From: Klebsiella phage RCIP0009
Sequence record: OR532803.1
Reading direction: 5' to 3' (one strand)
DNA length: 64,000 nt
A model generated the notes under the pieces. That model was not told where the DNA came from and did not search any database. It was given only the letters and a program-made list of their open reading frames with translations. This document shows, in pieces, positions 17,606-17,881 of the stretch. The position numbers and the translations under genes are program-made. Within the stretch, counting starts at the first letter, position 1; each line of letters begins with the position of its first letter.

Positions 17606-17881
17606 ATGGCAACTGAAAAATGGACTACGGTTCATCCTATTCCGTGGCGTAATACCAGTTTTACATATCTTCCATACTGGCTATACGATATTATCGTTGA
17701 TGCTTTTGAGAAAGGCGACGACTGGCGCGATTATGCGGAAGAAAAATATAAATTAGAGTTTGATACTCTGAAAGAGGCGTTTGAAGATTATGGTGATATT
17801 CATGTAATCGAATCTCGTAATGGTAAACTGGTTAGTCTGTTGTCATTGACTCCTGCTCCTGAACCAGTTACTGACCAATAA
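17606..17881 (+). CDS. Stand-alone paralog of the Hoc C-terminal capsid-binding domain (91 aa, no Ig domains)
   Basis: WTTVHPIPWRNTSFT...DDWRDYAEEKYK...ESRNGK aligns with Hoc residues ~280-353 encoded just upstream. Confidence 0.75.
   Translation: MATEKWTTVHPIPWRNTSFTYLPYWLYDIIVDAFEKGDDWRDYAEEKYKLEFDTLKEAFEDYGDIHVIESRNGKLVSLLSLTPAPEPVTDQ

Follow-up and report, generated by a model that had tools for sequence, protein, structure and literature searches.

Hoc is the decoration protein that T4-like phages use for mucus adherence; it is a target of antibodies and has been engineered for antigen display. In T4, a single Hoc molecule binds through its capsid-binding domain (CBD, here also called the anchor) at the centre of each expanded gp23* hexamer, with nanomolar affinity, and the protein is non-essential (PMC10385173, PMC9958956). 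Here we analyse an open reading frame (ORF) of 91 codons that begins 10 nt past the stop codon of hoc in a 64,000-nt stretch of Klebsiella phage RCIP0009 (OR532803.1), referred to in full as the window. The product of this ORF, mini-Hoc, consists of the anchor and a short tail, and its relatives identify it as an allele, lacking the displayed module, of an older second Hoc paralogue ('hoc2') whose CBD is N-terminal.

It is already known that a genome can hold two Hoc genes and that the anchor can be N-terminal; its use as a general display adaptor has been put forward, and this ORF has been annotated as Hoc-like. T4 Hoc shares with mini-Hoc the anchor fold, the ESRNG loop, the uvsW–inh–hoc neighbourhood, an acidic isoelectric point (pI) and a conserved predicted gp23 docking segment; unlike T4 Hoc, mini-Hoc has no immunoglobulin (Ig)-like domains, carries its anchor at the N terminus followed only by a linker stub, and has Lys for Tyr360 and Ile for Gln354. 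The N-anchored Hoc-like proteins of 164–167 or 245–246 aa (RB16/RB43 'Hoc', Cronobacter phage leB, Escherichia phage EcS1, Klebsiella phage Lemur_ER36; PHROG 11091, 14282) have an orthologous anchor (70–88% identity), the same start, MATEKWTTVHPIPWR, a position before the NT5C-like gene and a TP-rich linker, but they continue into one or two C-terminal Big_2-like Ig domains, and mini-Hoc ends where that domain would start. A 511-aa Hoc-like protein of Enterobacter phage PG7 was described by Fokine et al. 2023 (PMC10385173). This protein, which we treat together with that of vB_EclM-UFV01, starts with an anchor from the clade of mini-Hoc (53% identity), and a conventional Hoc is encoded in its genome as well, but it displays a GDSL lipase/acylhydrolase from a locus between cef and gene 39. 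The anchor-only proteins of Morganella phage vB_Mm5, Pantoea phage Phynn and a metagenomic relative (P0017) likewise combine an anchor with an acidic Pro-rich tail at the equivalent locus, without a display domain; unlike mini-Hoc, they belong to independent lineages and have longer tails, and tblastn detects no further Hoc homologue in vB_Mm5. T4 Soc offers a functional analogy as an accessory capsid protein of ~9–10 kDa without a displayed module (PMC9958956), but its fold is unrelated to that of the Hoc anchor and it clamps capsomers at 870 sites between them rather than once per hexamer centre.

Identity and fold of the mini-Hoc anchor

Mini-Hoc is identical to residues 276–345 of the adjacent Hoc at 35 of 71 aligned positions (49%; BLASTP E 2e-20) and matches T4 Hoc residues 293–365 (E 2.6e-10), with an identity of ~35% to the T4 domain. 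On these alignments, the similarity to Hoc is far in excess of chance. The original prediction had placed a 91-aa ORF 10 nt past hoc and aligned it with the C-terminal part of Hoc; this pairing holds and stays significant, and the motifs it quoted (WT.VHPIPWR[D/N]TSFT, DW[K/R] and SRNG) are all found in our alignments. The ORF product falls into three 'Hoc-like head decoration' families of PHROGs, phrog_14282 (E 2.4e-62), phrog_11091 (E 4.5e-41) and phrog_1149 (E 8.9e-23), the last of which is also matched by the 353-aa Hoc (E 6e-65). The 353-aa protein aligns with T4 Hoc 29–364 and carries Ig_3, Ig_2 and I-set in Pfam, where the 91-aa protein gives no significant match to an Ig or other domain. 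The predicted free-standing CBD without Ig repeats is thus corroborated by BLASTP, Pfam and PHROGs, and also by the structural model described below. Predicted tryptic peptides of the product include WTTVHPIPWR, LEFDTLK and EAFEDYGDIHVIESR.

An AlphaFold2 (AF2) model built on a 32-sequence alignment reached a predicted local distance difference test (pLDDT) score of 81, compared with 63 in a single-sequence run. The model contains strands at residues 10–12, 17–22, 65–69 and 75–77, plus helices, and its ends are disordered. This topology agrees with that reported for the T4 Hoc C-domain, a four-stranded sheet beneath a three-helix bundle (PMC10385173). Foldseek gives a single significant match in the PDB, to 8t1x_X (E 3.8e-7, TM 0.70), which is the C-domain of T4 Hoc bound to the gp23* capsomer; all remaining matches have E >0.8.

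In T4, as the original prediction had stated, this domain docks at the centre of gp23* hexamers, and Fokine et al. 2023 name 16 Hoc residues at or supporting the interface (PMC10385173). Nine of these are identical in mini-Hoc (H295, R300, W310, D313 and E355-S-R-N-G359), and three more positions (Y304, W306 and W309) exchange one aromatic residue for another. Residues H10, R15, W25, D28 and E69-S70-R71-N72-G73 are present in mini-Hoc, and all family-invariant residues are kept. On the capsid side, the gp23 of the window (8151–9719) has 17 of 19 residues as in T4 in the segment that corresponds to Gly326–Arg344, including Asp336 and Arg344; the role of this segment in Hoc docking is taken from the T4 structure (PMC10385173). 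As judged by alignment and model, the CBD of mini-Hoc is complete and its predicted capsid site is conserved.

Relatives, origin and expression signals of the ORF

The single protein returned only three proteins in a word-indexed homologue search, so a profile search was used instead, and a metagenome scan contributed 8 further loci. Mini-Hoc matches positions 1–90 of 246, 1–88 of 167 and 1–70 of 502 in the profiles of PHROG families, and these matches at the profile start place the CBD at the N terminus in those families (PHROG 14282, 11091 and 9703). The mini-Hoc CBD is 82–88% identical to the N-terminal CBD of the 164-aa proteins, 76% to that of EcS1 and 70% to that of leB. In a neighbour-joining (NJ) tree of anchors, mini-Hoc lies within an N-type clade, (EcS1, ((Lemur164, L014_164), mini)), and a second clade, made up of the C-type CBDs from these genomes, runs parallel to it. 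Since the two clades are parallel, the paralogues split before these genera did, and the duplication is old. Orthologues of 164–167 aa occupy the equivalent position in Lemur_ER36, metagenomic L014–16, EcS1 and leB, and a tandem of conventional Hoc and N-anchored protein (164–165 aa in these relatives), as in the window, is found in EcS1, L014–16 and Lemur_ER36.

These relationships bear directly on a suggestion of the original prediction, that the ORF could be a recent partial duplication of the adjacent hoc 3′ end. The tandem position fits such an event, as does a direct repeat of 38 nt that the two CBD copies of the window share at 89% identity. However, this repeat is the only long nucleotide similarity that remains between them, and the protein identity of 49% to the adjacent Hoc CBD falls well short of that to the N-terminal CBDs of other phages. 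Display-bearing orthologues occupy the equivalent position, and the N-type and C-type CBDs run in parallel across Slopekvirus and EcS1. The tree and the orthologues refute a recent duplication, to which we assign a negligible probability.

The anchor is combined with different modules across its relatives. One Big_2-like Ig domain follows it in the 164–167-aa proteins of RB16, leB, EcS1, Lemur_ER36 and metagenomic L014–16, two follow in the 245–246-aa proteins, and a GDSL esterase follows in the 508–511-aa form represented by Karamvirus UFV01. Lemur_ER36 is itself a Slopekvirus as judged from its flanks (94.5% and 97.3% nt identity), and pairs a conventional Hoc of 469 aa (L022 2081–3490) with the 164-aa form. 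At the corresponding place, 29 nt of the window (17854–17882) replace 243 nt of Ig-like coding sequence in Lemur_ER36; the lost domain resembles Big_2 only at a sub-threshold level (Pfam E 1.8e-4). The mini-Hoc tail, TPAPEPVTDQ, resembles the leB linker, TPADPVVTIT, with TPAPEP aligned to TPADPV. Parsimony makes the 91-aa form the derived state, in which the displayed domain has been lost through a cut at the linker.

Further variation surrounds both lineages. The number of Ig domains in conventional Hoc varies within the genus, from one Ig plus anchor in the 177-aa KP15-type protein (L004–L006, L023–24) to three in the 353-aa protein of the window, and the anchor is 100% conserved between these two. 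A 184-aa protein (P0042) joins a leB-type N-terminal anchor to an I-set Ig of the conventional Hoc type (...TGGTSPYTYVW...YKCVVTD...), which is not Big_2-like, and display modules seem to have been exchanged between the two Hoc lineages. The 511-aa protein of UFV01 (L002 4001–5536) and a 508-aa protein (L029 2986–4512) run from an N-terminal anchor through a Gly/Thr-rich middle to a GDSL/SGNH esterase at the C terminus (Pfam PF13472, E 5e-18), and their genes are flanked by cef and gene 39. In the tree, the anchor of L029 lies with the C-type anchors, which suggests that domain order swapped more than once. In Escherichia phage RB43, the N-anchored Hoc-like gene (L012 4001–4186) has an in-frame stop at codon 62, which encodes Tyr in RB16 and leB, and is annotated for that reason as a 61-aa 'Hoc'; the nonsense codon may stem from loss in the laboratory or from an error in sequencing.

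Anchor-only proteins with an acidic Pro/Glu/Thr-rich tail are found at the equivalent locus elsewhere in the Straboviridae. These are a 100-aa protein of metagenomic L017 (P0017), Phynn gp22 (96 aa), and the 121-aa proteins of vB_Mm5 (MM5_035) and L019. The computed pI is 4.25–4.65 for three of the anchor-only proteins (91, 96, 100 and 121 aa). The NJ tree places the anchor of vB_Mm5 with the C-type sequences. The Phynn gene (L036, MN038175.1) is labelled 'capsid vertex protein', and tblastn reports a second anchor-encoding place elsewhere in that genome. An exhaustive HMMER scan of 1.84 billion representative proteins returned 76 clusters at E <=1e-3, in which the anchor is C-terminal in ~60, N-terminal in a handful and free of other domains in a few (P0022, P0057, P0111).

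The region is 99–100% identical to Klebsiella phages of the genus Slopekvirus, among them PMBT1, Kpn35c1, KLB15, KP15, Matisse, Miro, RCIP0002 and vB_KpnM_05F. Mini-Hoc occurs at >=95% identity in ~111 GenBank phage records, and in a spread sample of 31 of these the match covers nt 1–276 in a single piece.

Expression signals point to joint transcription with hoc. A motif upstream of hoc, which we take to be the T4 late-promoter consensus, is the sole plus-strand copy within 13–22 kb, and the whole window holds 8 copies on the plus strand and 1 on the minus strand. This motif overlaps the stop codon of the upstream 189-aa HAD_SAK_2 gene. Mini-Hoc has a Shine–Dalgarno sequence 6 nt ahead of its ATG that overlaps the stop codon of hoc, and hoc likewise has AAGAGG (16520–16525). 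Between 16534 and 18414, no terminator-like site was found on the plus strand except one within the upstream HAD gene. The promoter motif, the Shine–Dalgarno sequence of its own and the lack of an intervening terminator, all from motif matches, make it likely that mini-Hoc is co-transcribed with hoc and translated efficiently. Fusion of mini-Hoc with hoc or the downstream gene by readthrough or frameshifting was considered and rejected: the three ORFs lie in different frames, and mini-Hoc and its orthologues carry their own Shine–Dalgarno sequence and ATG.

Possible roles at the capsid

Constraint on the ORF was examined in 11 Slopekvirus sequences, picked for divergence in mini-Hoc, which provide few sites and small counts. 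The ORF is intact in all 11. Relative to the 164-aa forms, the ratio of nonsynonymous to synonymous divergence (dN/dS) of the anchor is 0.09–0.17, and mini-Hoc differs from outgroups at 22–25 per 84–85 sites, compared with 22–29 for its display-bearing sisters, so that it is not the more diverged. The tail is the most variable part of the ORF: codons 88–89 read VT, DP or EP.

Our preferred reading, which we hold with slightly more confidence than doubt, is that mini-Hoc is a display-less hoc2 allele that docks at hexamer centres and shares these sites with Hoc, forming a mosaic capsid. Both capsid binding by mini-Hoc and its competition with Hoc, which the original prediction had raised together with a capping of sites, are plausible. 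The displayed module of hoc2 was deleted in most Slopekvirus, leaving a complete anchor and an acidic linker stub of 8–10 residues. The gene would be read from the hoc late transcript by means of its own strong ribosome-binding site, and its product would fold as the T4 Hoc C-domain and dock at the centre of expanded gp23* hexamers. Because each hexamer accepts one anchor, the ~155 sites would be split between mini-Hoc and full-length Hoc by abundance and affinity, so that capsids would be mosaic and each head would bear fewer Ig fibres. The benefit might come from reduced fibre density or reduced immunogenicity, or simply from capping the hexamer centres with a cheap acidic protein. A more elaborate form of this proposal, which we offer tentatively and regard as improbable, is that Slopekvirus co-expresses a 'blank' anchor with Hoc that fills a set fraction of the hexamer centres and limits Ig fibre density, with natural alleles tuning mucus adherence, aggregation and immunogenicity.

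Several observations weigh against the sharing of sites with Hoc. Four of the 16 T4 contact positions differ in mini-Hoc (Y293T, H299W, Q354I and Y360K), and because of these changes its affinity or site preference may differ from that of Hoc. The equivalent of T4 Tyr360 (mini-Hoc residue 74) is K, R or N in the N-type anchors whose genes form a tandem with a conventional hoc (Slopekvirus, L014, Lemur and EcS1) and stays Tyr or Phe in the other N-type anchors (leB, RB16, L007, L017 and UFV01) and in all conventional Hocs, which may reflect a change in affinity or site preference. Polymorphism in mini-Hoc is 6:3 nonsynonymous to synonymous over the whole ORF and 3:3 in the CBD, compared with 1:8 in the Hoc CBD, 1:13 in NT5C (minus strand) and 7:12 in the NT5C-like gene (plus strand); Fisher p for the whole ORF is 0.05 against the Hoc CBD and 0.005 against NT5C. 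These small counts suggest a weaker present-day constraint on mini-Hoc and leave room for a relaxation since the loss of the displayed domain. In the complete genome of vB_Mm5, MM5_035 is the sole CBD-encoding place by tblastn. With an anchor-only protein as the only Hoc homologue found there, competition with Hoc is not a general reason for anchor-only proteins, and vB_Mm5 speaks for a use of such proteins even where no full-length partner is present. Hoc is dispensable in the laboratory (PMC9958956), and the N-type gene of RB43 carries a nonsense codon. In the literature, we found no virion proteomics, cryo-electron microscopy or discussion of a second Hoc for Slopekvirus, nor direct evidence in any member that such an ORF is expressed, enters virions or binds capsids; the KP15/KP27 paper contains no proteome, and PMBT63 was set aside as a Slopekvirus source because the phage is not a Slopekvirus.

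The main rival is that mini-Hoc is an evolutionary vestige, in which the display domain was lost shortly before the sampled Slopekvirus diversified and the anchor ORF, too young to have decayed, has no selected benefit, may be made and may even bind. Divergence within the genus is indeed tiny (synonymous divergence, dS, about 0.02–0.04), the 6:3 polymorphism is close to a neutral ratio, unlike those of the Hoc CBD and NT5C, and the tolerance of a nonsense codon by the orthologous RB43 gene and the non-essential nature of Hoc-type decoration (PMC9958956) are in keeping with a dispensable gene. Set against this, no stop or frameshift occurs in any of the 11 sequences, the 31 sampled records match without interruption, the family-invariant residues all persist and the rate is no faster than in the 164-aa sisters. 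Moreover, anchor-only proteins are independent in Phynn, the L017 lineage and vB_Mm5/L019. On balance, we consider a vestige unlikely. The recurrence of a CBD with an acidic P/E/T-rich tail, at 91, 96, 100 and 121 aa, would fit an autonomous minimal decoration with anchor and tail as the functional unit, which would cap the hexamer centre or add negative charge; its tie to Hoc would be incidental, or it would fill sites left vacant by Hoc or a subset of hexamers to which Hoc binds poorly. Its standing as the sole Hoc homologue found in vB_Mm5 accords with this view, the K, R or N at the Tyr360 position in the tandem-Hoc lineages could mean a different preference, and Fokine et al. 2023 propose that Hoc acidity controls virion dispersion (PMC10385173). 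Nevertheless, the Slopekvirus tail is short (8–10 residues), has a net charge of only about −2 and varies more than the rest of the ORF, and we think an autonomous role quite improbable.

Locus, annotation and significance

The gene order is uvsW – inh – hyp – HAD – (hoc) – mini-Hoc – NT5C-like – NT5C – zeta-like, an arrangement shared with the loci of the 164–167-aa N-anchored proteins. The 189-aa protein immediately 5′ of hoc (15936–16505) has a HAD_SAK_2 phosphatase-like domain (E 2.7e-29) and a DnaJ-type CxxCxGxG zinc-finger motif at its C terminus, and is found at the equivalent position in leB, L014 and L017. Downstream of mini-Hoc, two convergent paralogous genes (17895–18413, plus strand; 18446–18910, minus strand) encode 5′-3′ deoxyribonucleotidase-like proteins, both in phrog_2643. 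These are followed by a gene for a 279-aa homologue of zeta-toxin-like P-loop kinases (18960–19799, minus strand; Pfam PF06414, E 9e-8; phrog_5268, E 2.5e-152), which adjoins the NT5C genes in all related Straboviridae loci examined.

Labels for the 91-aa ORF vary among records, from 'Hoc large outer capsid protein' in KP15 to 'outer capsid protein', 'hoc_2', 'Hoc-like head decoration' and 'hypothetical' elsewhere; the records of KP15, Matisse, Miro, PMBT1 and many other phages give it as Hoc or Hoc-like. In Slopekvirus records, the annotation is often swapped: the 91-aa ORF is called 'hoc' or 'highly immunogenic outer capsid protein'; the true full-length Hoc is in several records hypothetical, a 'tail fibers protein', a 'tail protein' or a 'whisker protein'. 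The phiEap-3 paper shows an equivalent swap (PMC6412083). The Slopekvirus hoc annotation calls for correction. The original prediction was not aware of any description of such a paralogue, which stands in part. Among the papers found, none treats a Hoc reduced to its anchor, without a display part, or notes its possible competition with Hoc, and the words 'truncated', 'alone' and 'compet' are absent from PMC10385173. The ORF is nonetheless already annotated as Hoc or Hoc-like, its PHROG families exist, and PMC10385173 already reports genomes with two Hoc genes as well as a CBD at the N terminus (PG7, 511 aa).

Table 1. Features of the hoc and mini-Hoc locus and of the gp23 docking segment in the window
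Feature	Position	Strand	Basis
gp23 segment GSKAGAFDFQDPIDVRGAR, equivalent to T4 gp23 Gly326–Arg344, Hoc docking region	9132..9188	+	alignment to T4 gp23
T4-type late-promoter motif TATAAATA, upstream of hoc	16501..16508	+	motif search
hoc, conventional Hoc, 353 aa, three Ig-like domains and C-terminal CBD	16534..17595	+	ORF listing, Pfam, PHROGs
Hoc CBD, residues 271–353, paralogous to mini-Hoc	17344..17592	+	BLASTP, tblastn, alignments
38-nt direct repeat, copy 1, in hoc CBD, encodes TVHPIPWRDTSFT	17368..17405	+	repeat family D1, 89% identity
TAAGAGG, hoc stop codon overlapping Shine–Dalgarno sequence, 6 nt before mini-Hoc ATG	17593..17599	+	read from sequence
mini-Hoc ORF, ATG to TAA, 91 aa, 10.8 kDa, pI 4.5	17606..17881	+	ORF listing
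Complete capsid-binding fold (predicted), residues 7–80, four strands and helices, ESRNG loop at residues 69–73	17624..17845	+	AF2, Foldseek, alignment
38-nt direct repeat, copy 2, in mini-Hoc ORF	17627..17664	+	repeat family D1, 89% identity
Linker stub and acidic Pro-rich tail, residues 81–91, SLTPAPEPVTDQ	17846..17878	+	low pLDDT, likeness to leB linker
13-bp GC-rich hairpin between convergent genes	18415..18445	.	first terminator-like site downstream of hoc and mini-Hoc

Among candidates for Klebsiella phage therapy, the Slopekvirus phages (KP15, KP27, Matisse, Miro, PMBT1 and roughly a hundred others) rank with the most used. If mini-Hoc shares hexamer centres with Hoc, the number of Hoc copies per head would lie below the 155 of T4, would be set by the ratio of two genes and would differ between natural alleles. 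If the anchor moreover acts as a deliberate blank, the phage would encode a competitor of its own decoration protein, with the 91- and 164-aa forms and Hoc with one, three or four Ig domains as the alleles. Provided that it takes up hexamer sites, mini-Hoc would also be a ready-made, naturally validated minimal tag of ~80 residues for C-terminal display on T4-type capsids.

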